Shown here piece by piece: positions 1 to 10,321 of a DNA stretch of 10,321 nucleotides (within the stretch, counting starts at the first letter, position 1; each line of letters starts with the position of its first letter). The notes beneath the pieces are model-generated. The model searched no databases. It was given only the letters and a program-made list of their open reading frames with translations, and was not told the origin of the DNA. The translations under genes and the position numbers were made by a program. The stretch comes from a virus (lineage: Duplodnaviria; Heunggongvirae; Uroviricota; Caudoviricetes). The DNA lies in the IMG/VR virus record IMGVR_UViG_2802429251_000008, positions 1 to 10,321 of that record; one strand, 5' to 3'.

Positions 1-342
1 ATGATGAAAAAAAGTATTCTGGCGTTTCTGTTACTCACCAGTTCTGCAGCGGCGCTGGCGGCACCGCAGGTGATTACCGTCAGTCGTTTTGAAGTGGGTA
101 AAGACAAATGGGCATTTAACCGCGAAGAGGTAATGCTGACATGCCGACCGGGCCATGCGTTGTATGTTATTAATCCGAGTACCCTCGTGCAGTATCCTTT
201 GAACGATATCGCACAAAAGGAAGTCGCCAGCGGGAAGACCAATGCCCAGCCCATTTCGGTGATTCAGATTGATGATCCTAACAATCCAGGTGAAAAAATG
301 AGTCTGGCACCGTTTATAGAGCGAGCTGAAAAACTCTGTTAA
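1..342 (+). CDS. Small secreted/periplasmic protein of unknown function (host flanking gene)
   Basis: Complete ORF ATG..TAA; N-terminus [23 protein letters not shown] reads as a Sec signal peptide with an AxA cleavage site; followed by an intrinsic terminator. Family not recognised with certainty. Confidence 0.6.
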
Positions 343-371
343 TTACCTAAAATAGCCTTTTGATTTCCAAT

Positions 372-412
372 AAAAAACCGCCTCAGTTCTTTCACCAGAA
401 CAGGCGGTTTTT
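372..412. terminator. Bidirectional rho-independent terminator
   Basis: A-tract 372-377, stem CCGCCT(ca)GTTCT 378-390 pairing with AGAACAGGCGG 397-407, loop 391-396, T-tract 408-412. Can terminate both the upstream + gene and the leftward int transcript. Confidence 0.7.
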
Positions 413-568
413 AACATTTAAGCTGATGACCACCACGCTTTTTATTGACCATTTTGCACGCAAACTGGAAAACCTGGCGTCGTCATCTATTCTTAAAGGG
501 CAAGGCAACTAAGCCTGCATTAATGCCAACTTTTAGCGCACGGCTCTCTCCCAAGAGCCATTTCCCTG

Positions 569-602
569 GACCGAATACAGGAATCGTATTCGGTCTTTTT
601 TT
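569..602 (+). terminator. Intrinsic terminator-like hairpin plus T7 tract
   Basis: Perfect 10-bp inverted repeat GACCGAATAC (569-578) / GTATTCGGTC (586-595), 7-nt loop, then TTTTTTT 596-602. No ORF upstream on + strand; may end a small RNA or be part of the attachment region. Confidence 0.5.
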
Positions 603-636
603 AATTGTATTTAAAATCAATTAGTTGCAAACGCCT

Positions 637-656
637 CCCCGAAATTCCCCGAAATT
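637..656. repeat. Tandem direct repeat CCCCGAAATT x2 near int 3' end
   Basis: Exact 10-bp unit repeated twice, about 80 bp from the int stop; candidate integrase arm-type or accessory-factor binding sites in attL. Confidence 0.4.
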
Positions 657-733
657 TACTCGAATTTCTGTATTCCGGTCTTTTTTGGTTATATCACAAC
701 CAAAATGCATTTAACAATCCATTTACGTTAAAA

Positions 734-1810
734 TCAGAGCAGTAAGTACGTTTTTTCCCTCTCATCAAGATACATTTTTGTTGTCTTCTCCGATGTGTGG
801 CCAAGTAGACGCTGAGCAAATTCTTCTCCACATGTTTCTTTGTACAATCGTCCAGCCAGACTTCTGATCTCGTGAAAAGTTGGTGGGTTTTCACTGAACT
901 GGATACCTGTTAATTTTCTGGCTGCGACAAATTTTTTTGTCAGGCCGTCCGGGTGAATGCTGCCGTCAGGGCTGTTTTTTCTAATCCCGGCACTGATTAG
1001 ATAATCTCCCCGGCTTACCAGGCGGCACTGTTCAACTACTGTACCAAGCCGTAGACCAGCGACAGGAAGGCTGAGTGACAGGGGGATAGCAATCATCATT
1101 CCTGTCTTAATTTGCCTGATGTGGAGACGATCATCATAAATATCACTAAACCGCATATTCGTTATGTCTTCGCGACGTTGTCCTGTTACAAGGGCTAAAT
1201 CCATAGCTAATGGGAACCATGCCGGAAGTTGATCTGCTGCCTCCCTGATGCAGTTGTATGTCTTTAGTTTCAGTCGTTCTCTTGTAACTACTATTTTCGG
1301 TGCTCTTGTTGGTGTTACTGGATTTTGAGATATACGTCCTTCAACAATGGCCTCACGAAACATATCAGACAACACAGAACGCATTGATCCTGCCATTGTG
1401 TTTTTCCCTCCTTCAATCCACAAATCAAGAAACTCGGCAATATGGCGAGTGGTTATTTCTGTCAGTAAAATCTCTCCCAATTTTTCTTTTATTGTCTCCA
1501 GTTGATTTACCCGAATTTTATAAGTATTTCTGGACACTTTTCTCCTTATAAGAATCGTTTTGTAACGTTCAATCCAGTCTGCCATAGTAAATGAGTCGAG
1601 CCCTTTAAGCTTTTCAATTAAGGCAGCAGGAGAGTAGTTTTTGTATATATAATGATTTGCTTCAATTGCCTGCGCTACTGCATCTCTTCTTGAAATTTTA
1701 CCTAGTGTAAATTCTTCTTTCGTCAGAGGGTTGCGCCAGTAATATGCTTTGTCCCTCCTTCGATATGTTAAGTTTTTAGGCAAATTGGGATCGTATTTTT
1801 TCCGCTGCAT
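734..1810 (-). CDS. int: Lambda-family tyrosine integrase
   Basis: 358 aa; aligns by eye with lambda Int (PNLYxR..YY, TGQRxxD box, HExRSL..RLY box, LLGH...Y C-terminal catalytic Tyr). SD GGAGAAG 7 nt upstream of ATG at 1810. Confidence 0.9.
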
Positions 1811-2057
1811 GTTTTAACTTCTCCAGTAACGGACTGTCTCTCCCTTGTCGCCCATTAGGCTGATGGTGTGTTATATCGGTATCAACCTTATTTGGGTTGA
1901 TATAGAAAGCCTCCGGAACCACCCTGTAACTCCTCCCGTGTAGTTCAGGTGCAGGATAAATGTTTCCATTCCTTGCCCATCGTCTCAGCGTTGATATTGA
2001 TGGTGGGTTATCCGGATATCTGAGTTTTCCCCACGTTTTGAGTGTCACAAGATTCAT
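1776..2057 (-). CDS. xis: Excisionase-like DNA-binding protein
   Basis: Immediately upstream of and overlapping int by 35 nt (lambda xis/int arrangement); basic small protein. Start moved to the second in-frame ATG (2057), which has SD AGAGG at proper spacing. Confidence 0.65.
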   Translation of the reverse strand: MNLVTLKTWGKLRYPDNPPSISTLRRWARNGNIYPAPELHGRSYRVVPEAFYINPNKVDTDITHHQPNGRQGRDSPLLEKLKHAAEKIRSQFA

Positions 2058-2079
2058 TGCCATACCTCTTACGATATGA

Positions 2080-2108
2080 CCGCCAGTAAATATACAGAAT
2101 ACTGGCGG
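2080..2108. promoter_or_regulatory. 9-bp inverted repeat (CCGCCAGTA n11 TACTGGCGG) upstream of xis
   Basis: Perfect 9-bp arms read directly; no flanking T-tract, so more likely a protein-binding palindrome or RNA hairpin than a terminator. Confidence 0.3.
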
Positions 2109-2163
2109 ATGTGGTTGATTTTTAATAATCAGCTATGAAGTTCTAATTTGTATATAATGCAAC

Positions 2164-2352
2164 TCACGAGGACAGAAGTTTCTCGCAATTAAAATTTATC
2201 AGCTTTACTTTCTGCTCTCTGGAAACGCCTGCTTCTTTTTTCCCTGAGAGCATTTTTTCGCATTCTGATTTCGTTAATTTAGATTTTGAATATCTTGTCC
2301 AGTTAGTAGGAGTGCCACCTTCCTTTTCAATAGTGGCAGTAATTTTATACAT
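2164..2352 (-). CDS. Small hypothetical protein (Rac ydaC position)
   Basis: 62 aa from ATG at 2352 with strong SD GGAGGT 4 nt upstream; start overlaps the lar stop by 8 nt (translational coupling). Assignment by position only. Confidence 0.5.
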   Translation of the reverse strand: MYKITATIEKEGGTPTNWTRYSKSKLTKSECEKMLSGKKEAGVSREQKVKLINFNCEKLLSS

Positions 2353-2575
2353 GAACACCTCCATTATTATTTCCAGTAGTTCGTTTATTCCATCTTTCGA
2401 GTGCTTCTTTTTCACTTCCACTATAGCCGGTTCGGGATTCGCATCCGTTACACTTTGCGCGGTAATATCCTGAAATGGCTTTCACCGTTACTGATGGACA
2501 ACCACAAAATGGACATGGTTTGACTTTTGTGTATCGCACTGGTTTTTCTCCTGTGAGCTTTGTGGCTGCGCTCAT
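2345..2575 (-). CDS. ralR: Lar/RalR-family restriction-alleviation protein (Cys4 zinc-binding)
   Basis: Contains CPFCGC...CNGCES Cys4 motif typical of the Lar family; sits between exo and the small ORF as ralR does in Rac. Start chosen at ATG 2575 (SD GGGGAG 8 nt upstream), overlapping the exo stop as ATGA. Confidence 0.7.
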
Positions 2576-3252
2576 TTCCATTGCTCCCCAAATACAAAAC
2601 CAATTTCAGCCAGTGCCTCGTCCATTTTTTCGATGAATTCTGGCACCATCTCGTCAAAACTCGCCATGTACTTTTCATCCCGCTCAACCACGACATAATG
2701 CAGGCCTTCACGCTTCATACGCGGGTCATAGTTGGCAAAGTACCAGGCATCTTTTTGCGTCACCCACATGCTGTACTGCACCTGGGCCATGTAAGCCGAC
2801 TTTATGGCCTCGAAACCACCGAGCCGGAACTTCATGAAATCCCGGGAGGTGAACGGGCATTTCAGCTCAAGGCCGTTGCCGTCATTGCATAAACCATCGG
2901 GAGAGCAGGCGGTGCGCATAGTCTCGTCACGATAGATGATCGGGGATTCAGTAACATTCACGCCGGAAGTGAACTCAAACAGGGTTCTGGCGTCGTTCTC
3001 GTACTGTTTTCCCCAGGCCAGCGCCTTAGCGTTAACTTCCGGAGCCACACCGGTGCAAACCTCGGCAAGCAGGGTGTGGAAGTAGGACATTTTCATGTCA
3101 GGCCATTTCTTTCCGGAGCGGGGTTTTGCTATCACGTTGTGAACTTCTGAAGCTGTGATGACGCCGAGCCGTAATTTGTGCCACGCATCATCCCCCTGTA
3201 CGATAGCTCTCACGTCGATCCCGGTACGCTGCAGGATAATGTCCGGTGTCAT
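2572..3252 (-). CDS. exo: Lambda exonuclease (Red alpha)
   Basis: 226 aa, near-identical to lambda Exo from memory ([17 protein letters not shown]...GFVFGEQW); start overlaps the bet stop. Confidence 0.95.
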
Positions 3253-4034
3253 ATTGCCACCTTCTGCTCTGCGGCTTTCTGTTTCAGGAATCCAAGAGCT
3301 TTCACTGCTTCGGCCTGTTTCAGTTCTGACAATGCATGAATGTCGCGGCGAAATATCTGGGAACAGAGCGGCAATAAGTCGTCATCCCATGTTTTATCCA
3401 GGGCGATCAGCAGAGTGTTAATCTCCTGCATGGTTTCATCGTTAACCGGAGTGATGTCGCGTTCCGGCTGATGTTCTGCAGTGCATGCGGTATTTTCGAC
3501 AATGCGCTCGGCTTCATCCTTGTCATAGATACCAGCAAATCCGAAGGCCAGACGGGCACACTGAATCATGGCTTTATGCCGTAACATCCGTTTGGGATGC
3601 GACTGCCATGGTCCGATGATTTCTTTGCCTTCTCGGGTTTTGAATGGTTCGCGACGGCACTCATCCATCCACTCGGTAACGCAGATCGGATGATTACGGT
3701 CCTTGCGGTAAATCCGGCATGTACATGATTCATTGTCCTGCTCAAAGTCCATGCCATCAAACTGCTGGTTTTCATTTATGATGCGGGACCAGCCATCAAC
3801 GCCCACCACCGGAACAATGCCGTTCTGCTTATCAGGGAAGGCGTAAATCTCTTTCGTCCACGGATTAAGTCCGTACTGGTTGGCGACGATCAGCAGCGCG
3901 ATGAATTGCGCATCGCTGGCATTACCTTTAAATGCCGTCTGGCGAAGAGTGGCGATCAGTTCCTGCGGGTCGACAGAATCCATGCCGACGCGTTCAGCCA
4001 GCTTCCCGGCCAGTGTTGCAAGTGCTGTACTCAT
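3249..4034 (-). CDS. bet: Lambda Bet single-strand annealing protein (Red beta)
   Basis: 261 aa, near-identical to lambda Bet from memory ([27 protein letters not shown]...). Confidence 0.95.
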
Positions 4035-4039
4035 TCGTT

Positions 4040-4339
4040 TTATACCTCTGAATCAATATCAACCTGGTGACGAGCAATGGTTTCAACCATGTACCGGATG
4101 TGCTCCGCCACACGTTCCTGAAATTCAACATCGTCATCAAATGCGCGACTGATTGCCTGTTTGCTGGCACCGTGGCGTTGCAAATGGTCGATGCAGAGCG
4201 ATTCAAACAGATGCTGGGGCAGACCTTTTTCCAGGTCGTCCGCCAGCGCCGTTTCTTTTTCTTCGCGAACGATTTGCTGGTAGTGGCGTGACCATGCCTG
4301 CTCTTCAATGCGATCAAAAATTGGGCATGTACTCATCAT
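4040..4339 (-). CDS. gam: Gam, RecBCD inhibitor (short GamS-length form)
   Basis: 99 aa; from residue 13 onward matches lambda Gam C-terminal 86 residues (SRHYQQ...HQVDIDSEV). The first 12-15 residues differ from lambda and the upstream frame is occupied by the ORF672 3' end. Confidence 0.9.
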
Positions 4340-6332
4340 CCGTCACCCCAAAATTTTCAAGTTTGTTTGCAATCATCATTGCAATACCCGGAATTAATGG
4401 CGCTGAGGCTATACCCGCAGGATTTGCACATAAACCGTAAACCGCTGCAATCACCACTTGTCTTTTCCAGTCGAGTTTTTCTAATGATGAAGCTGCTGCT
4501 TCGCCAGTTTCATCACTGCAATCGCGATGCGGATCGCTGCCATCGTTCTCCTTGTGCGGATGTTCAGCACCTTCCATTTCCTCCAGACCTTTTTCCTGAT
4601 ATTCATTCTGATTTTCTTCATTAAAGGTTTTCTGATACGTTGCGTCGCCCATCACCGCGCCGCAGTCAGGACAGTTGCCGCCGCCAGCCTGACCGCAGGC
4701 GATGCAAACTTTCTCCGTTTCCTGTTGTTGCACTACTGGCTCAGGCTGTTTCGTTTCTGGCTCGTTTTGTTGCGTATTTGGGTCGTTCTGTTCCGCTTTT
4801 TGGTCGTTATGTTCCGTTTCTGGCTGATTCTGGTACACAGAGTCGCGGGTCTGGATCCCCTTAACCCATTTCGGATCATTCGGGTCGCTAATCCCTTCAA
4901 CAAATTCTCCGCGAGAGGCAGCCAGTAATTTGTCTGCATCGACAGGATTTTTGGGCGGAATGTTTTTCCGGGCTTCATGGAGTTCTGCCCGCAGTTTCTG
5001 ATATTTCGCATCAACAGAATTTACCTGTGACTGAGCATCCAGCGACTGCGTGTCCTGATGATGTTCAGTTGCATCCGGTTCCACTGTTTCAGCCGTTGCC
5101 TGTTCATCTGCCATTGCGCAAGATGGTTGCAGTTTTTCTTCATCATCCTGTTTTTCTTCTTCTGTTACACGCTGCGGCATCGGGGCAGAGGAACGACCGC
5201 AGGCAATATCCACGATTTCTGGATCAGGGTTGGCATGATCAGTTTCAGTCAGTACTTTGTTTAGATATTCAGTGACGTGTGCGGGGATAACCTCGATCCC
5301 AATTGGTGCTTCTTTTACGGACGCAACCACGATGGCGCGGGAATAATCCAGCCCGCCAGGCATGGTGATGAATTTGTCGCGGAAAACAGAAAAGGGCGGT
5401 TTATTTTCAGCGATAATTTCCTCGACACGTTTAGCGTGTGCCGGATGAAGGTTATAAATGTCCACGTCCATTGAACGAGCCAGTACGCCAGTGGCTACGT
5501 CGCGCGCCAGTGACGTCAGATCGTGAACGAAACCTTCGCCGCGATCGGTGAGGTTCCCGCCGCCAGCATTAGCGCCGGAAGCCGTGCGCGTGATGCGTGA
5601 AACACGATTTCCTTTCATCCACTCTTTTGTCAGCAGACCACGATCGGTGTAGTCTGCGTCCAGGTATGCTTCGAAAAAAGCAGTCATCAGCCCCAGGCTT
5701 GAATTGCCTGGATTAGGGAAAACTCTGTCAGTATCACGCACCAGTTTGTGGAGATCGCGAATTTCCAGCGGGTCGAGCAGGCTGGTTTTGTGGGAAACAG
5801 CCAGGGCAGTAACAGCTGGTAGTTCTTCAGCTCGTGCAATGTGTAATGCCTGGAGTTCGTCGCGTGAAACGTGCGTTACCGGTTTTTCGCTGCCGTGTTG
5901 AGCAAGCCAGCGAATGGGCAGCTCCTGACCGGAAATCGGGAGTAGCATATTCTCCTCAATCTCCGTCATGTCTTCGCCATTAACATTGGTATTGTCAGTG
6001 CTGGCTGGTTTGTCCTGCGCAGAGGATGAGGGCGCGATAAATACCATTGTGATGCCATCTTCCCCGCCTTTTTCGTAACGGTTGCAGAATTCCGTATCAA
6101 ATACGCCCTCTGGTGGAAGGTCATCAACAACGGGCAAATTGACGCGAACAGGTTTTTTAAAGTCATCTTCATCGTAGCCAGCATCGTCAATCGCAACAGC
6201 ACCACGGGATATGGCAATGGATAATTTTTTCGCTTCAGCCCAGTAGAAACCGCCTTTAATACCGAGACGTTTTCTTACTTTGTCATTTTTTGCTTCGTAA
6301 TACAGTGGGTAAACTTGTTTATCGGTGCTCAT
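4314..6332 (-). CDS. Large uncharacterised early-operon protein; possible RecE N-terminal-region relative without a nuclease domain
   Basis: 672 aa uninterrupted; SD GAGG upstream of ATG 6332; stop overlaps gam start by about 26 nt. Globular N-terminal region, acidic low-complexity middle, five heptapeptide repeats, CxxC-x9-CxxC zinc ribbon, and a Gly/Ala/Pro-rich hydrophobic C-terminal tail. Occupies the recE slot of Rac. Confidence 0.75.
4736..4850. repeat. Degenerate 21-bp tandem repeats inside ORF672
   Basis: Units such as GGTCGTTCTGTTCCGCTTTTT / GGTCGTTATGTTCCGTTTCTGG on + strand; encode [35 protein letters not shown] on the minus-strand frame. Confidence 0.6.
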
Positions 6333-6401
6333 TGTTTTTTAACCTCAACTCAGATTAAAATTACTGCGAGTGATGAATAAATGTCCTAGGTTCTTCACTC
6401 A

Positions 6402-6432
6402 GGCCTGCACAGTGTGCAGGCTTTCTTTTTTT
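6402..6432 (+). terminator. Plus-strand-oriented hairpin plus T-tract inside the leftward operon
   Basis: 9-bp arms GCCTGCACA / TGTGCAGGC (6402-6420) then TTTCTTTTTTT (6422-6432), abutting the racC-like stop. Oriented against the surrounding genes. Confidence 0.4.
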
Positions 6433-6707
6433 CAGATTTCACCTTTTAATTTCATTGCAATCAGAGTTGCCAGAAATTCGGCTTTTTTTTCTGCGGGCAG
6501 ATTCTTTCCTATGTGCACCAGACACATTTCTTTAACACCATCGTTAAGTGTTTTAACGTTGCCTGATGGACCGTCGATATCAACCACAGTGAATGGGGTT
6601 TCTTTATTTTCTGTCTTAATCACGTAGCCAATACGCTTTCCTTCCAGGGTAACTTCGTGAACAATGTCATCAGTAGTAACAACAGTGGCTTCATAACTGG
6701 TAATCAT
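6432..6707 (-). CDS. racC: RacC-like small protein
   Basis: 91 aa from ATG 6707 (SD AAGGAG 6 nt upstream); size and position match Rac racC. Symbol assigned by size and synteny, not sequence recall. Confidence 0.55.
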   Translation of the reverse strand: MITSYEATVVTTDDIVHEVTLEGKRIGYVIKTENKETPFTVVDIDGPSGNVKTLNDGVKEMCLVHIGKNLPAEKKAEFLATLIAMKLKGEI

Positions 6708-6781
6708 GTTTTTCTCCTTAATTAAGGTTGATCGAATCCCTGCCATTGCTGGCATAAATTCAGTTTCGGATAGTCAGTTAA

Positions 6782-6952
6782 TTAAAGTTCGTGTGCCATC
6801 TGGTCTTTTTCGGCACAACTTTCACTACAATATTTTTTCATTTCCGTCGTTGGGATAACTCCACGCATGAAATGAAGAGGTCTTTTAATACTTTTGCTTT
6901 CTTCAATTTCTTTATTGCAAAGGTGGTAAGCACATTTTATTTTCTTAGTCAT
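6782..6952 (-). CDS. ydaE: YdaE-like small Cys-rich zinc-binding protein
   Basis: 56 aa, below the 60-aa ORF-track cutoff and found by manual translation: [56 protein letters not shown] (CxxxxC...CxxxC). Start overlaps upstream stop as TGATG. Size and order match Rac ydaE. Confidence 0.55.
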   Translation of the reverse strand: MTKKIKCAYHLCNKEIEESKSIKRPLHFMRGVIPTTEMKKYCSESCAEKDQMAHEL

Positions 6953-7173
6953 CACCATGACTCCGCCTTTACAGGTAAACCATCACGACCGAGGAAGACT
7001 TTAATCATGCAGTCAGAAATGCATGTTTTTGTAGTCAGGTTACGAATATAAAGTTTTCGCTTTTTAATATTGTTTGCCGAGGCGATATATGTCCGGCCTT
7101 CATGAAGAACATAATCACCAGGAGTCACACACTGACGTGGTATTTCATCAGTTCCGAAGTGATGTGCAATCAT
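6952..7173 (-). CDS. kilR: KilR-like small protein (candidate FtsZ/cell-division inhibitor)
   Basis: 73 aa from ATG 7173 (SD GGAG 6 nt upstream; the track start at 7185 overlaps the SD). Size and order match Rac kilR. Function inferred from Rac. Confidence 0.55.
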
Positions 7174-7248
7174 AATTATCTCCATTTTTACAAATGAACT
7201 TTGTTGATGCGGTGCCTGGCGCCTCCAGGTGACTGCAACCAGTTAACA

Positions 7249-7277
7249 ATTACAGTCGGCTTTCCCACCCAAACCAA
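7249..7277 (-). promoter_or_regulatory. Candidate sigma70 promoter for kilR-ydaE-racC
   Basis: Minus-strand -35 TTGGTT (7277..7272), 17-bp spacer, -10 TGTAAT (7254..7249); the leader would contain the CCTGG-n5-CCAGG hairpin. Confidence 0.25.
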
Positions 7278-7346
7278 TAAGGACTAACATGACTTTTAAC
7301 TGTGCCGCGTGCGCTTAGCCGCATTCACCGCATCACAAAATTCACT

Positions 7347-7392
7347 TTAAAAAGGGGCGGCAGGGCAGCCACGGAGTAGAACTGATGCCGCC
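7347..7392 (-). terminator. Candidate leftward intrinsic terminator
   Basis: On minus strand: stem GGCGGCA (7392..7386) / TGCCGCC (7362..7356), 23-nt loop, then CC + TTTTT (7353..7349). Long loop lowers confidence. Confidence 0.3.
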
Positions 7393-7516
7393 AAAGACTA
7401 CACATAGCAATGTCGTTATTTACAACCGGAGGCGCACTCCCACCATTTAAATTTAACAGACAAGACCGACTCTTTATGAATACCGGAAATGCACCTTCGT
7501 GTTGTGCGCCTGTCTT

Positions 7517-7544
7517 TTTACCACTTCAGGCTCGGTGGTATACT
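7517..7544 (+). promoter_or_regulatory. Extended -10 promoter for the + strand 64-aa ORF
   Basis: TGgTATACT (7536-7544) with -35-like TTTACC (7517-7522) at 16-bp spacing; ATG at 7579 preceded by TAAGG. Confidence 0.4.
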
Positions 7545-7578
7545 GGAGTTCTCACACAACCAGTAATAAGGTATTCCG

Positions 7579-7773
7579 ATGGATAATAAAGACAAAGCCT
7601 GGCTACTTGCTTTAGCTTTCAGCATCAGATCGCAGCGAGAAACAACTCATCAAGAATTTTTCTCGGAAATCGAGAATGCTGAGAATGAGTTTTTGTCACT
7701 ACTCAATGAACGTGATGCTAAAAAAAGCTCCGATTCACTTAAGGCTTGGGCGAAACTAGGCTCTTCAAAATAA
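7579..7773 (+). CDS. Small hypothetical protein (64 aa), opposite in orientation to neighbours
   Basis: ATG start with SD-like TAAGG, own promoter, two in-frame stops immediately upstream; 3' end overlaps the convergent 72-aa ORF by 35 nt. No recognisable family. Confidence 0.4.
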   Translation: MDNKDKAWLLALAFSIRSQRETTHQEFFSEIENAENEFLSLLNERDAKKSSDSLKAWAKLGSSK

Positions 7774-7957
7774 TTGCTTCTGTAGCGGCATGAACAACTG
7801 TTTTTGCCGCCTCTTCAACTTCCTTGTCTGGACGACCAGCCTTTACTTTTTCTGCAATGACCTCCAGCACAGTTGGAAGAACCTTGCTAATAAGCATGGC
7901 TGCCACATCTTTGCTGCACAATTGACCGTTAATAACAACCAGATCTTCACCAACCAT
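7739..7957 (-). CDS. Small hypothetical protein (72 aa), first gene after the leftward promoter
   Basis: ATG 7957 with SD AAGGGG 7 nt upstream; downstream of a consensus-like promoter. Not Arg-rich, so not an N-type antiterminator. Confidence 0.45.
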   Translation of the reverse strand: MVGEDLVVINGQLCSKDVAAMLISKVLPTVLEVIAEKVKAGRPDKEVEEAAKTVVHAATEAIILKSLVSPKP

Positions 7958-8022
7958 CTTTTTTCCCCTTAACGCCGGGTGGCGGAACTAAAACCTACAG
8001 CGCCGTGCTGTTCTTGATAGAA

Positions 8023-8051
8023 ATATTAGTAACACGGATATTTTAAGTCAA
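8023..8051 (-). promoter_or_regulatory. Leftward early promoter (pL-equivalent candidate)
   Basis: Minus-strand -35 TTGACT (8051..8046), 17-bp spacer, -10 TAATAT (8028..8023); sits between the racR terminator and the 72-aa ORF in an AT-rich region. Confidence 0.45.
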
Positions 8052-8147
8052 TAGTATGGCGTATGATATTTTTGATTTAGTAACTATGTAAATGTTTTTT
8101 CAAGGGAAAAATATTAGTTATACAGCTGATTTGCAGAAGTTATGGCA

Positions 8148-8177
8148 CAAAAAAACCGACTAAGACGTCGGTTTTTT
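8148..8177. terminator. Bidirectional intrinsic terminator downstream of racR
   Basis: AAAAAAA (8148-8154), stem ACCGAC / GTCGGT with 4-6 nt loop, then TTTTTTT (8171-8177). Confidence 0.7.
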
Positions 8178-8204
8178 TGTTGTGGATGGGGTAGTGAGTA
8201 GTGG

Positions 8205-8666
8205 CTACTGGTTACGTTTCTTTAGTGCCAGCATGTTCTCGAAGGCTTCCTCGTAGAGCTTGTTTAGTCCACGTAGCTGGTTAAGGAGTTTGGCTTTTTC
8301 TGACGCAGGTAGAATCTCGAAGAGGTTAAGTAACTCAGCCTGTTCTTCATTGACCAGCCTCCATCCTTTGCCTGAAAAGCTATCATCATAAGTATCTGAT
8401 GATCTTACATAATTCATTAAGTCTTTAAGGTCTTCTCGAATGTCCTCTGGTTTTACCTTTAACAGAGCCGCAAATTTTAGCGCAGCGTCGGTATTTACCG
8501 GTATCTTGCCGTTCAGATACTGGCTAACGGTGCCTTGAGATTCGAATCCCAACAACTCAGCCGCCAGCTCTTGAGTCAGCTTCAGCTCTTTTTTTCTTGC
8601 ATTCCATGCGGCTTTTAAATTCTTGCTCGCTTCTGGAGTTGCAATCACTTCGCGTGTTTTTTTCAT
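8205..8666 (-). CDS. racR: XRE-family HTH prophage repressor (RacR-like)
   Basis: 153 aa; N-terminal HTH (LTQELAAELLGFESQGTVSQYLNG); divergent from ydaS-ydaT exactly as racR is in Rac. Confidence 0.8.
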   Translation of the reverse strand: MKKTREVIATPEASKNLKAAWNARKKELKLTQELAAELLGFESQGTVSQYLNGKIPVNTDAALKFAALLKVKPEDIREDLKDLMNYVRSSDTYDDSFSGKGWRLVNEEQAELLNLFEILPASEKAKLLNQLRGLNKLYEEAFENMLALKKRNQ

Positions 8667-8690
8667 ACATAGAGTTTATTTGTTTTACCA

Positions 8691-8767
8691 ATATTATCAA
8701 AGATAGTCTGACTGTTGATCTTTAAAATTAGTGGGGCTAATATTTGATCGAGGCATAACGTAGAAGG
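8691..8767. promoter_or_regulatory. Divergent promoter/operator region between racR and ydaS
   Basis: Plus-strand -35 TTGATC (8715-8720), 17-bp spacer, -10 TAATAT (8738-8743) for ydaS; minus-strand -10-like TAATAT (8696..8691) for racR; palindromic elements AAAGAT-n14-ATCTTT (8699-8724) and AGTCtGACT (8705-8713). Confidence 0.45.
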
Positions 8768-8773
8768 TTGGCT

Positions 8774-9049
8774 ATGAACTTAAGAGACTATTTAAAAGAG
8801 AAACATATCACCCAGTTACAGTTTGGGAAGCTAACGGGTTTATCTCAGGTGCATGTAAGTCGAGTGCTGGGGGGCTATGAAAGATTCAGCCCTGAAAAAG
8901 CATTACGTGTTGCTGAAGTAACGAATTTCGAGGTTACACCTCATGAACTCCGGCCTGATATCTACCCGAATCCGACCGATGGTTTACCTGTTGGATGTAA
9001 GGCTAACACACAAAATGCACAGGAGTTGATTCATGAAAATCAGGCATGA
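8774..9049 (+). CDS. ydaS: YdaS-like Cro/HTH protein (toxic when derepressed in Rac)
   Basis: 91 aa from ATG 8774 (SD GAAGG; the track start at 8768 is TTG); HTH GLSQVHVSRVLGG; overlaps ydaT start by 17 nt. Confidence 0.75.
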   Translation: MNLRDYLKEKHITQLQFGKLTGLSQVHVSRVLGGYERFSPEKALRVAEVTNFEVTPHELRPDIYPNPTDGLPVGCKANTQNAQELIHENQA

Positions 9050-9455
9050 GCACATCGAATCAGTGTTGTTAGCCCTAGCCGCTGAAAAAGGGCAGGCGTG
9101 GGTCGCTAACGCAATTACTGAAGAATATCTGCGCCAGGGGGGCGGCGAATTGCCCCTGGTACCAGGCAAGGACTGGAATAATCAGCAGAACATCTATCAC
9201 CGTTGGTTAAAAGGTGAAACGGAAGCGCAAAGGGAAAAAATTCAGACACTGATCCCTGCGGTTCTGGCAATTCTTCCGCGCGAGCTGCGTCACCGACTCT
9301 GCATCTTCGATACCCTGGAACGCCGTGCATTACTGGCGGCGCAGGAAGCGTTGAGTACGGCAATTGATGCGCATGATGATGCAGTCCAGGCCGTTTACCG
9401 GAAAGCACATTTCAGCGGTGGTGGGTCGCCCGGTGATTCTGTCGTAGTGCATTGA
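9033..9455 (+). CDS. ydaT: YdaT-like protein
   Basis: 140 aa; matches Rac YdaT in length and in recalled sequence (MKI.HEHIESVL.ALAAEKGQAWVANAITEEYLRQGGGELPLVPGKDWNNQQNIYHRWLKGE...); SD AGGAG 7 nt upstream. Confidence 0.8.
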   Translation: MKIRHEHIESVLLALAAEKGQAWVANAITEEYLRQGGGELPLVPGKDWNNQQNIYHRWLKGETEAQREKIQTLIPAVLAILPRELRHRLCIFDTLERRALLAAQEALSTAIDAHDDAVQAVYRKAHFSGGGSPGDSVVVH

Positions 9456-9500
9456 TTGAAATTAATCGTGCCGGATTGTTTTGTTCGGTATCAGTTAAAT

Positions 9501-9519
9501 GTAACGCTGCGAGCGTTAC
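9501..9519. repeat. 19-bp perfect palindrome GTAACGCT-GCG-AGCGTTAC just upstream of the O-position gene SD
   Basis: Read directly; copy 1 of a repeated palindrome family. Confidence 0.7.
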
Positions 9520-9532
9520 AAGGTGAAAACAA

Positions 9533-10321
9533 ATGGCTTCAAACTGGATAAAGCTCGAGGTTATTACGCCGGATAAGCCGGAAATATTCAGGCTTGCTGA
9601 GATTCTGAATATTGATCCAGATGCCGCATTAGGGAAGGTTATTCGCTTCTGGGCATGGGCGGATCAACAAATGATAGACGGTAATGCAGATTGTAACGCT
9701 CGCGGCGTTACAAAAAGTGCAATAGATCGCATCACTTTTATGGCTGGTTTTGCTGATGCGTTAATTCAGGTTGGATGGCTGGTCGAAAATGACGTTGGGC
9801 TTTCTCTACCTAACTTTGAACGTCATAACGGAAAAAGCTCTAAAAAACGGGCGGTTACAAACGAGCGAGTTACAAAAATACGCGAACTGAAACGAAAAGG
9901 TAACGCTACCAGCGTTACACAAACGGATCAAAAAGCGTTACCAGAGGAAGAGGAAGAGGAAGATATAAATACTGATCTCCCCCTAAATCCCCCTCGCCAA
10001 AAACGAGCGTCTAAAAAATTCGAGCCGGAGGCTATTGAGCTGCCCGATTGGTTGCCGGAAACACTCTGGCATGAGTGGGTCCGGTTCAGGCAGGCATTGC
10101 GAAAACCGATTCGAACGGAGCAGGGCGCTAACGGGGCGATACGGGAACTGGAAAAATTCCGCCAGCAGGGTTTTACACCTGAGCAGGTGATTCGACACAG
10201 CATCGCCAATGAATACCAGGGCCTGTTCGCGCCGAAAGGTGTTCGGCCTGAGACGTTGCTCCGACAGGTTAACACCGTCTCGTTGCCGGACAGTGCGATC
10301 CCGCCTGGCTTCAGGGGGTAA
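9533..10321 (+). CDS. Putative replication-initiator-like protein (lambda O position; Rac ydaU slot) with internal palindromic repeats and acidic linker
   Basis: 262 aa complete ORF ending at the last base of the window; follows ydaS-ydaT; contains EEEEEED linker right after the DNA repeats. Replication role inferred by synteny only. Confidence 0.6.
   Translation: MASNWIKLEVITPDKPEIFRLAEILNIDPDAALGKVIRFWAWADQQMIDGNADCNARGVTKSAIDRITFMAGFADALIQVGWLVENDVGLSLPNFERHNGKSSKKRAVTNERVTKIRELKRKGNATSVTQTDQKALPEEEEEEDINTDLPLNPPRQKRASKKFEPEAIELPDWLPETLWHEWVRFRQALRKPIRTEQGANGAIRELEKFRQQGFTPEQVIRHSIANEYQGLFAPKGVRPETLLRQVNTVSLPDSAIPPGFRG
9693..9711. repeat. Palindrome copy 2 (GTAACGCT-CGC-GGCGTTAC)
   Basis: 18 of 19 positions match copy 1; lies inside the coding sequence. 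Confidence 0.65.
9900..9918. repeat. Palindrome copy 3 (GTAACGCT-ACC-AGCGTTAC)
   Basis: Perfect 8-bp arms; flanked by degenerate copies (GTTACAAA x2 at about 9853-9876, AGCGTTAC at 9934-9941) and followed by GAGGAAGAGGAAGAGGAAGA. Confidence 0.65.

Follow-up and report, generated by a model that had tools for sequence, protein, structure and literature searches.

A putative lambda ori-like replication origin embedded in the initiator gene of a lambdoid prophage, with an initiator not homologous to lambda O

The DNA considered here is a stretch of 10,321 nucleotides (nt), positions 1 to 10,321 of the IMG/VR virus record IMGVR_UViG_2802429251_000008 (Caudoviricetes), and this whole stretch is referred to as the window. 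It is a 10.3-kb arm of a lambdoid prophage with integrase, RecT and RecE-like genes, and the gene at its end (9533..10321, plus strand; the window ends at the stop codon) encodes a two-domain replication initiator of 262 amino acids (aa). We propose, with a probability of about 70%, that this gene carries inside its own coding sequence an origin of replication with the layout of lambda ori, and that the sites of this origin are bound by the encoded initiator, which is not a homologue of lambda O. The core of the origin is likely the cluster at 9845-9990, and not a set of three equal palindromes; the first two palindromes, about 200 base pairs (bp) apart, would serve as auxiliary or regulatory sites. 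The gene occupies the position of lambda O, after the cro-like and cII-like genes (ydaS and ydaT), and its product matches PHROG 2509, ‘replication initiation protein’, with an E value of 1.4e-89 over residues 1-262 against profile positions 1-277. The next gene in a near-identical Escherichia coli locus (L001, 99.3% identity) encodes a DnaC-like ATPase. An earlier note on this DNA had suggested an origin and/or an operator set by analogy with lambda, and this suggestion is supported by the conservation of the sites, by a phased array joined to a low-stability tract, by the phrog_2509 match and by the DnaC-like gene in next place.

The three palindromes that the earlier note had placed at 9501, 9693 and 9900 were recovered. 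The pattern GTAACGCT-N3-AGCGTTAC matches 9501-9519 and 9900-9918 without mismatch, and 9693-9711 with one mismatch (right arm GGCGTTAC); when written in the 7-5-7 form, GTAACGC-N5-GCGTTAC, palindromes 1, 2 and 3 are all perfect, with the spacers tgcga, tcgcg and tacca. Only 0.04 would be expected for this count of three, and none of 200 dinucleotide-preserving shuffles reached it. Further copies, which the note had proposed to look for, are found neither elsewhere in the window nor in 25 kb of the 99.3%-identical prophage. The half-site GCGTTAC occurs nine times in the window against 0.77 expected, with seven of the nine inside 9501-9941. Additional degenerate half-sites spread over about 450 bp had also been reported, and they are borne out by a half-site density (at most one mismatch) of 21 per kb in 9481-9952 against 3.4 per kb elsewhere.

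The sites differ in their setting. Palindrome 1 (9501..9519) lies in the 5' untranslated region, its 3' end 1 nt short of the Shine-Dalgarno-like AAGGTG and 14 nt short of the ATG at 9533. Palindrome 2 (9693..9711) falls midway through the N-domain coding region, at codons 54-60, where it specifies the loop C-N-A-R-G-V-T that joins helices 29-48 and 61-68. It is preceded, at a distance of 12 bp, by a degenerate left half-site, GTAATGC (9681..9687), within a four-codon insertion, N-A-D-C (9681-9692), that is present in the window gene and in several, though not all, enteric homologues. The insertion therefore adds exactly one left half-site 12 bp 5' of palindrome 2, and the gain of a site is seen in the protein as the lengthening of a loop. 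Further downstream, a 14-bp tandem repeat (9845..9876) contains two degenerate right-oriented half-sites, GCGGTTAC and GCGAGTTAC, including GAGTTAC at 9867-9873, and the Serratia and Pantoea homologues carry CGCGTTAC sites at the equivalent of these half-sites. At the centre of the half-site array stands palindrome 3 (9900..9918), which belongs to the putative origin core and lies 25 nt ahead of the codons P-E-E-E-E-E-E-D (9943-9966). Next comes a last, exact right half-site, GCGTTAC (9935..9941), which is read as A-L-P, in another frame than palindrome 3 with its S-V-T. Residues 105-137 are encoded by palindrome 3 and its half-sites (9845-9941); these residues adjoin the disordered segment 124-149 or fall within it. 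The earlier placement of the copies is thus right for copy 1, in the 5' untranslated region, and for copy 3, before the acidic run, and wrong for copy 2, which lies in mid N-domain, away from that run.

The N-domain (aa 1-123) defines a large family. It matches 6,596 clusters (50% identity clusters, E <= 1e-3), in which it is always N-terminal, in proteins of 200-370 aa with varied C-domains. Homologous loci were gathered by an alignment-based scan, with one genome per species, as the scan with a single protein as query gave near-identical sequences only. The 73 loci obtained, at 35-98% identity, come from Enterobacterales, Pseudomonas, Burkholderiales, Planctomycetota, Verrucomicrobiota (including Akkermansia) and others, and the family ranges over prophages of E. 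coli and Shigella, epsilon15-like, Xanthomonas, Ralstonia and Pseudomonas phages, as well as Akkermansia and Planctomycetes. Most of these loci have a palindrome at +148 to +160 and another at +337 to +391 from the start codon. The upstream copy recurs at -32 to -44 in the Serratia, Pantoea and Winslowiella homologues, and left half-sites or degenerate copies are present at -21 to -57 in some Verrucomicrobia. The hexamer GTAACG/CGTTAC reaches 7.1 per kb inside -100..+480 against 0.40 per kb outside, an 18-fold difference. Two phages at about 71% DNA identity have both kept the two intragenic copies, with spacers that differ. The earlier note had named a lack of conservation in homologous genes as the result that would overturn its reading; the opposite was found, since position and sequence of the sites are kept across several phyla. 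The initiator gene is the only gene that is always linked to the sites, and the neighbouring genes vary between loci.

The homologues clearly point to selection on the DNA rather than on the protein. Depending on the lineage, the downstream intragenic copy is read as x-N-A-x-S-V-T, as V-T-x-x-A-L-(P/Q) or as S-R-x-x-R-D, so that every frame is used. Synonymous sites were tested on 65 non-redundant genes aligned by codon: the four-fold degenerate positions in the arms are nearly frozen (GGT 45/56, GCT 35/45, GTT 52/60), while all four bases are used elsewhere in the domain. The six GTG exceptions belong to a GTCACG variant, in which the left arm changes Asn to His and the right arm changes a Val codon synonymously. 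For the counts of arm pairs, the site was taken by its alignment position and not by its symmetry. At arm position 3 there are 51 A-T pairs and eight double changes that keep complementarity, with no G-T pair. Mismatches are tolerated at the inner and outer positions of the arms. The changes are also concerted: the variants GTCACG, GTTGCG, GTTACG and CTAACG are each identical in all copies of a genome. The notion that the repeats are a by-product of a peptide motif (N-A-x-S-V-T), or of chance, can draw on the near invariance of the N-domain residues G50, N51, A52, V59 and T60. It has a vanishingly small probability, given the three reading frames, the frozen synonymous positions, the copy outside the coding region and the shuffles that never reach the observed count. 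The peptide-repeat reading as such is rejected, as the site is read in three frames.

The same symmetry could be explained if the palindromes acted as single-strand hairpins, either as stem-loops in the messenger RNA or as priming or primosome-assembly signals in single-stranded DNA. In fact, each palindrome can fold as an RNA stem of 8-10 bp at -12 to -16 kcal/mol, the changes in the arms keep complementarity, and some homologues have a DnaT-like C-domain. However, G-T pairs, at 0-3 of 65 per arm position, are almost absent, many half-sites have no partner, as they stand in direct arrays where left and right copies differ in number, and a stem does not require that a variant be repeated in every copy of a genome. 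RNA folding gives modest z-scores (-1.8 to -3.6), and an Rfam search of 9400-10321 found no family. Hairpins are rejected as an improbable account of these sites, above all since half-sites stand unpaired in their arrays and wobble pairs are lacking.

What sets the downstream cluster apart is its geometry. Around the downstream palindrome the homologues have, on average, two left-oriented and two right-oriented half-sites, with the left ones first. Half-sites of the same orientation follow each other at 11-12 bp (42/55 and 37/48), and the switch from left to right measures 12 bp in 46 of 48 genes. With a spacing of 11 nt, successive half-sites fall into different frames, as with S-V-T and then A-L-P. 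The last half-site is followed, 7-8 nt on, by a purine run of 12-33 nt in 33 of 48 genes, and the GA tract overall measures 20-50 nt. In the window this is the polypurine tract (AGAGGA)x3.5 on the coding strand (9943..9963; codons EEEEEE), which starts 2 nt past the end of the last half-site, or 8 nt past its CGTTA core. Over the family, the tract has at least 85% purine at nearly every position and 60-70% adenine plus thymine (AT) for about 27 nt, falling to 40-45% AT further on. From Enterobacteria to Planctomycetota and Verrucomicrobiota it is conserved at nearly every base, also where the half-site has changed. The 5-nt GA repeat gives rise to the peptide repeat R-E-E-K-R, and in genes with at least 55% guanine plus cytosine (GC) its Arg codons are AGA in 45 of 45 cases against 13 of 450 elsewhere. 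A general role of the tract as H-DNA (mirror-repeat triplex) was considered and set aside: by inspection, the (GAGAA)n of most lineages mirrors and the (AGAGGA)n of the window does not.

The tract leads into the least stable 30-bp duplex segment of 9300-10321, GAAGATATAAATACTGATCT..., at 9959..9988, with a dG of -33.6 against a mean of -41.3 (standard deviation 3.1) for the 30-mers scanned over that region, and this segment is a candidate unwinding region. The mosaic junction with YdaU-type genes falls directly behind the tract, at about 9960. C-tracts, CCCCCTAAATCCCCC, were also observed at 9979-9993, just 3' of the least stable segment and near the junction. The same motif is present in K-12 ydaU (locus L157, about 2405-2425), and C5...C5...G5-like motifs follow the tract in four further loci (L083, L106, L111 and L122); these may represent a proline-rich linker or a further DNA element. 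By strict criteria applied to 61 full-length homologues, the whole layout is present in 35, a part of it in 15 and none of it in 11.

Several points weigh against the embedded origin. The 11 homologues without array and tract form one Verrucomicrobial subgroup, and at least two of the three loci of that subgroup that were examined (L129, 1945-2740; L138, 1410-2164) have only dispersed 19-bp sites, four each, at about -21/-56, +148, +366/+540 and +708/+722. The array of the window is itself poorer than that of many homologues, with one left and two exact right half-sites besides the degenerate ones, and its tract is only moderately AT-rich (GC 40-47%). The spread of sites over 450 bp is unusual for an origin. 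In a comparison of 63 close E. coli alleles, 6 of 49 arm positions and 118 of 551 other sites vary, which is the expected direction and is not significant (p = 0.14). The K-12 Rac prophage, in which a related gene is found, has been called replication-defective after excision (PMC11879457), at odds with a report that calls its oriJ active (PMC3945230). Finally, a literature search found no member of the family for which binding, unwinding or replication had been studied by experiment.

A rival reading is that the sites are operators only, through which the initiator or another regulator represses or roadblocks the transcription and translation of the gene, with the origin elsewhere. Palindrome 1 abuts the ribosome-binding site, the Verrucomicrobial subgroup has dispersed sites with no array or tract, and the position of the origin has been located by no experiment. 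We nevertheless consider operators alone unlikely, as they leave the phased array, the conserved purine tract, the low-stability segment and the lambda ori-like layout unexplained. Additionally, 25 kb of the related prophage showed no further repeat cluster, and a promoter scan of 9300-10321 gave no promoter-like site; its one terminator-like hit, on the minus strand at palindrome 3, is within chance expectation.

It is also conceivable that YdaT, a host factor or some other protein binds the sites, or that they serve another DNA transaction, for example recombination between modules. Inverted repeats resembling the YdaT operator do occur in the window, five against 1.1 expected: one (9026-9043) covers the ydaT start codon with one mismatch, and a second (9452-9469) lies at the ydaT stop, 32 nt 5' of palindrome 1, with two mismatches. 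The mosaic junction just past the tract means, in turn, that conserved linker DNA could favour the exchange of modules. The published YdaT operator, TTGATTN6AATCAA, is unrelated to the palindromes (PMC9986795), and neither YdaT nor any other neighbour is present in most of the loci with conserved sites. Host factors, for their part, would not track lineage-specific variants of the half-site across phyla. This account is therefore very improbable, and YdaT itself is rejected as the binder on account of its different published site and of the lack of linkage of its gene to the sites elsewhere.

The initiator remains the best candidate for the binding protein, and its domain layout agrees with the arrangement of the sites. 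A putative origin-binding N-domain (aa 1-123, encoded at 9533..9901, plus strand) is followed by a disordered linker (aa 124-149) and a C-domain (aa ~150-262). In an AlphaFold model (mean predicted local distance difference test, pLDDT, 76.6) the N-domain has helices at 16-25, 29-48, 61-68 and 73-80, then a beta hairpin (wing) and a long basic helix at 101-122; the segment 124-149 is disordered and the C-domain is helical. Both intragenic palindromes fall in low-confidence parts of the model: palindrome 2 encodes the loop 49-60, with low pLDDT, and palindrome 3, the last half-site and the tract encode the segment 124-149. The C-terminal half aligns with K-12 YdaU over 179 residues (63% identity), of which the last ~120 are almost the same. 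The searches for known domains were negative: Pfam gave no hit for the window protein, N-domain searches in Pfam, NCBIfam and PDB sequences gave nothing usable, and fold searches with the protein model gave no significant match. The DnaT domain (PF17948) and the NCBIfam DnaT model are not recognised in it, the match being of 19 residues with E 0.006 and 16 bits against a cut-off of 201; PF17948 is present in the C-domain of 5 of 26 homologues.

We therefore propose a mechanism in which the N-domain would recognise its sites, with the core GTAACG / CGTTAC, in duplex DNA. The initiator gene would be transcribed from an early rightward promoter, and dimers or oligomers of its product would bind the phased half-sites. 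The origin core at 9845-9990, in the part of the gene that encodes the disordered linker, would comprise the half-sites, palindrome 3, the last half-site, the purine tract and the easily melted segment. The oligomer would strain the adjacent GA/A-rich tract until it opens, and the YdaU-type C-domain would then bring the host helicase by way of the DnaC-like loader, the product of the following gene. Palindromes 1 and 2 could help to build a larger looped or wrapped complex, and palindrome 1, by the ribosome-binding site, could allow the initiator to limit its own synthesis. A further proposal, possible and rather speculative, is that the GA tract is a sequence-specific opening or helicase-entry element, read by the invariant basic helix F-E-R-H-N-G-x3-K-x-R-x5-R. 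The element would then be a phage counterpart of initiator boxes joined to a short-period repeat, built on a small non-ATPase initiator, and N-domain, sites and tract would form a portable cassette that works as a replicon across phyla.

Upstream of the initiator gene the window carries the repressor gene (8205-8666, minus strand), the Cro-like YdaS gene (8768-9049) and the CII-like YdaT gene (9033-9455). A SraC/RyeA and SdsR/RyeB small-RNA pair (Rfam) adjoins the integrase gene (window 462-606, 734-1810), and because the pair stands directly beside that gene the prophage seems to occupy the ryeAB locus. L001 has its 99.3%-identical replication module in a Rac-type prophage at ttcA; the same replication module is therefore found in different prophage backbones. 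The RalA antitoxin small RNA and the DicF small RNA are also present in the window (2168-2346 and 7355-7406; Rfam gathering-level), and they are ordinary in Rac- and Qin-type prophage arms. A DnaC-like gene lies 3' of the initiator gene in phiPSA1 and Pusillimonas as well. The Pusillimonas sp. T7-7 ‘plasmid’ NC_015459.1 is a 41-kb circle comprising the whole genome of a temperate phage, with genes for integrase, terminase, capsid, tail and lysozyme. For replication it has only two recognisable genes, this initiator gene and that of the DnaC-like ATPase, and the initiator gene carries an L-L-L-R-R set of sites (L and R, left- and right-oriented half-sites) with a purine tract of ~50 nt.

The importance of the element lies first in a predicted origin, with a testable map of sites, for a large undescribed initiator family that has no Pfam model. 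It would represent an unusually clear example of two codes in one sequence, in which the loops and linkers of a protein are shaped by sites for binding DNA. It would also explain the recombination of these genes, as the specificity domain and its sites travel together, with the junction right after the tract. If the origin activity is true, the cassette could seed replicons for hosts without genetic tools.

The literature search returned no description of the motif, of this origin, of oriJ coordinates or of an epsilon15 origin. In bacteria, a short-period repeat tract, the DnaA-trio, abuts the DnaA boxes of the initiator, and opening starts there; the trio has a period of 3 nt, and DnaA is an AAA+ ATPase. 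The window family has a period of 5-6 nt and a small non-ATPase initiator, so the likeness is one of layout only.

The phages epsilon15 and phiPSA1 carry distant members of the same N-domain family (34% identity), annotated as ‘replication initiation protein’, DnaT-like or primosomal protein I. They have an L-L-R-R array inside the gene, followed by CCAGAGAAGAGAAGAGAAGA. They differ in the half-site, which is GTCCGC/GCGGAC, in the first cluster, which lies at +50 to +110 and not at +150, and in the C-domains and neighbouring genes. Genes for C-5 cytosine methyltransferases were observed directly 5' of the initiator gene in epsilon15 (L158, 342-1511) and in Vibrio phage 1.211 (L161, 504-1508 and 2889-3345); since all variants of the half-site contain CpG, methylation might affect the recognition of the sites.

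The YdaU-YdaV system of the K-12 Rac prophage (oriJ region) offers a further comparison. The ydaU gene also follows ydaS and ydaT, shares the C-domain and is followed by the gene of the DnaC-like YdaV, and it too has repeats and then an A-rich tract just before the shared C-domain. However, the N-domain of YdaU is of the DUF1376 type and is unrelated by sequence; in the window protein Pfam gave no DUF1376-type hit, and hhalign against K-12 YdaU gave a probability of 0.1% for the N-domain. The repeats differ likewise, being TGTTCAAACA. In K-12 ydaU (L157, 2253-2359), direct and inverted TGTTCAAACA repeats are followed by the A-rich tract. These repeats are candidate sites for the DUF1376-type N-domain and possibly an undescribed oriJ core. 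The window and K-12 genes are alternative N-domain-plus-site cassettes on one C-domain.

Several features are shared with lambda ori. The origin of lambda and the putative one of the window both sit midway in the initiator gene, with the repeats in the part that encodes the linker; in each case the initiator has two domains, and the helicase-loader gene comes next. The dyad-symmetric sites of about 19 bp (ATCCCTC-N5-GAGGGAT in lambda) precede a coding-strand tract rich in A and G (PMC7466680), and in the window an AT-rich, easily opened tract flanks the sites (9943-9963; 9959-9988). In Stx phages two extra iterons add 13 aa to the protein (PMC7466680), and here, similarly, one extra half-site adds 4 aa, so that extra sites lengthen the protein in both. 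The arrangement differs in that lambda has four tandem full iterons 20-24 bp apart, whereas the window has no series of four or more: its half-sites of 5-7 bp follow each other at 11-12 bp, with one orientation switch and one full palindrome per cluster, and more clusters lie ~200 bp away, in the N-domain coding region and the 5' untranslated region. The tract of the family is, moreover, a 5- or 6-nt GA repeat. The proteins are not detectably related: the window N-domain and lambda O give an hhalign probability of 0.3% and a BLASTP E value of 1.4, and the Phage_rep_O domain (PF04492) has no Pfam hit in the window protein or in 26 family members. The lambda analogy of the earlier note thus stands for the layout of ori, and gives way for the protein, which is no lambda O homologue, and for the copies, which are unequal with a core at 9845-9990. 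Because its N-domain is unrelated to lambda O and its half-site arrays are accompanied by extra distant clusters, the element would be placed outside the lambda O/ori family, as a putative origin that has the plan of lambda ori.

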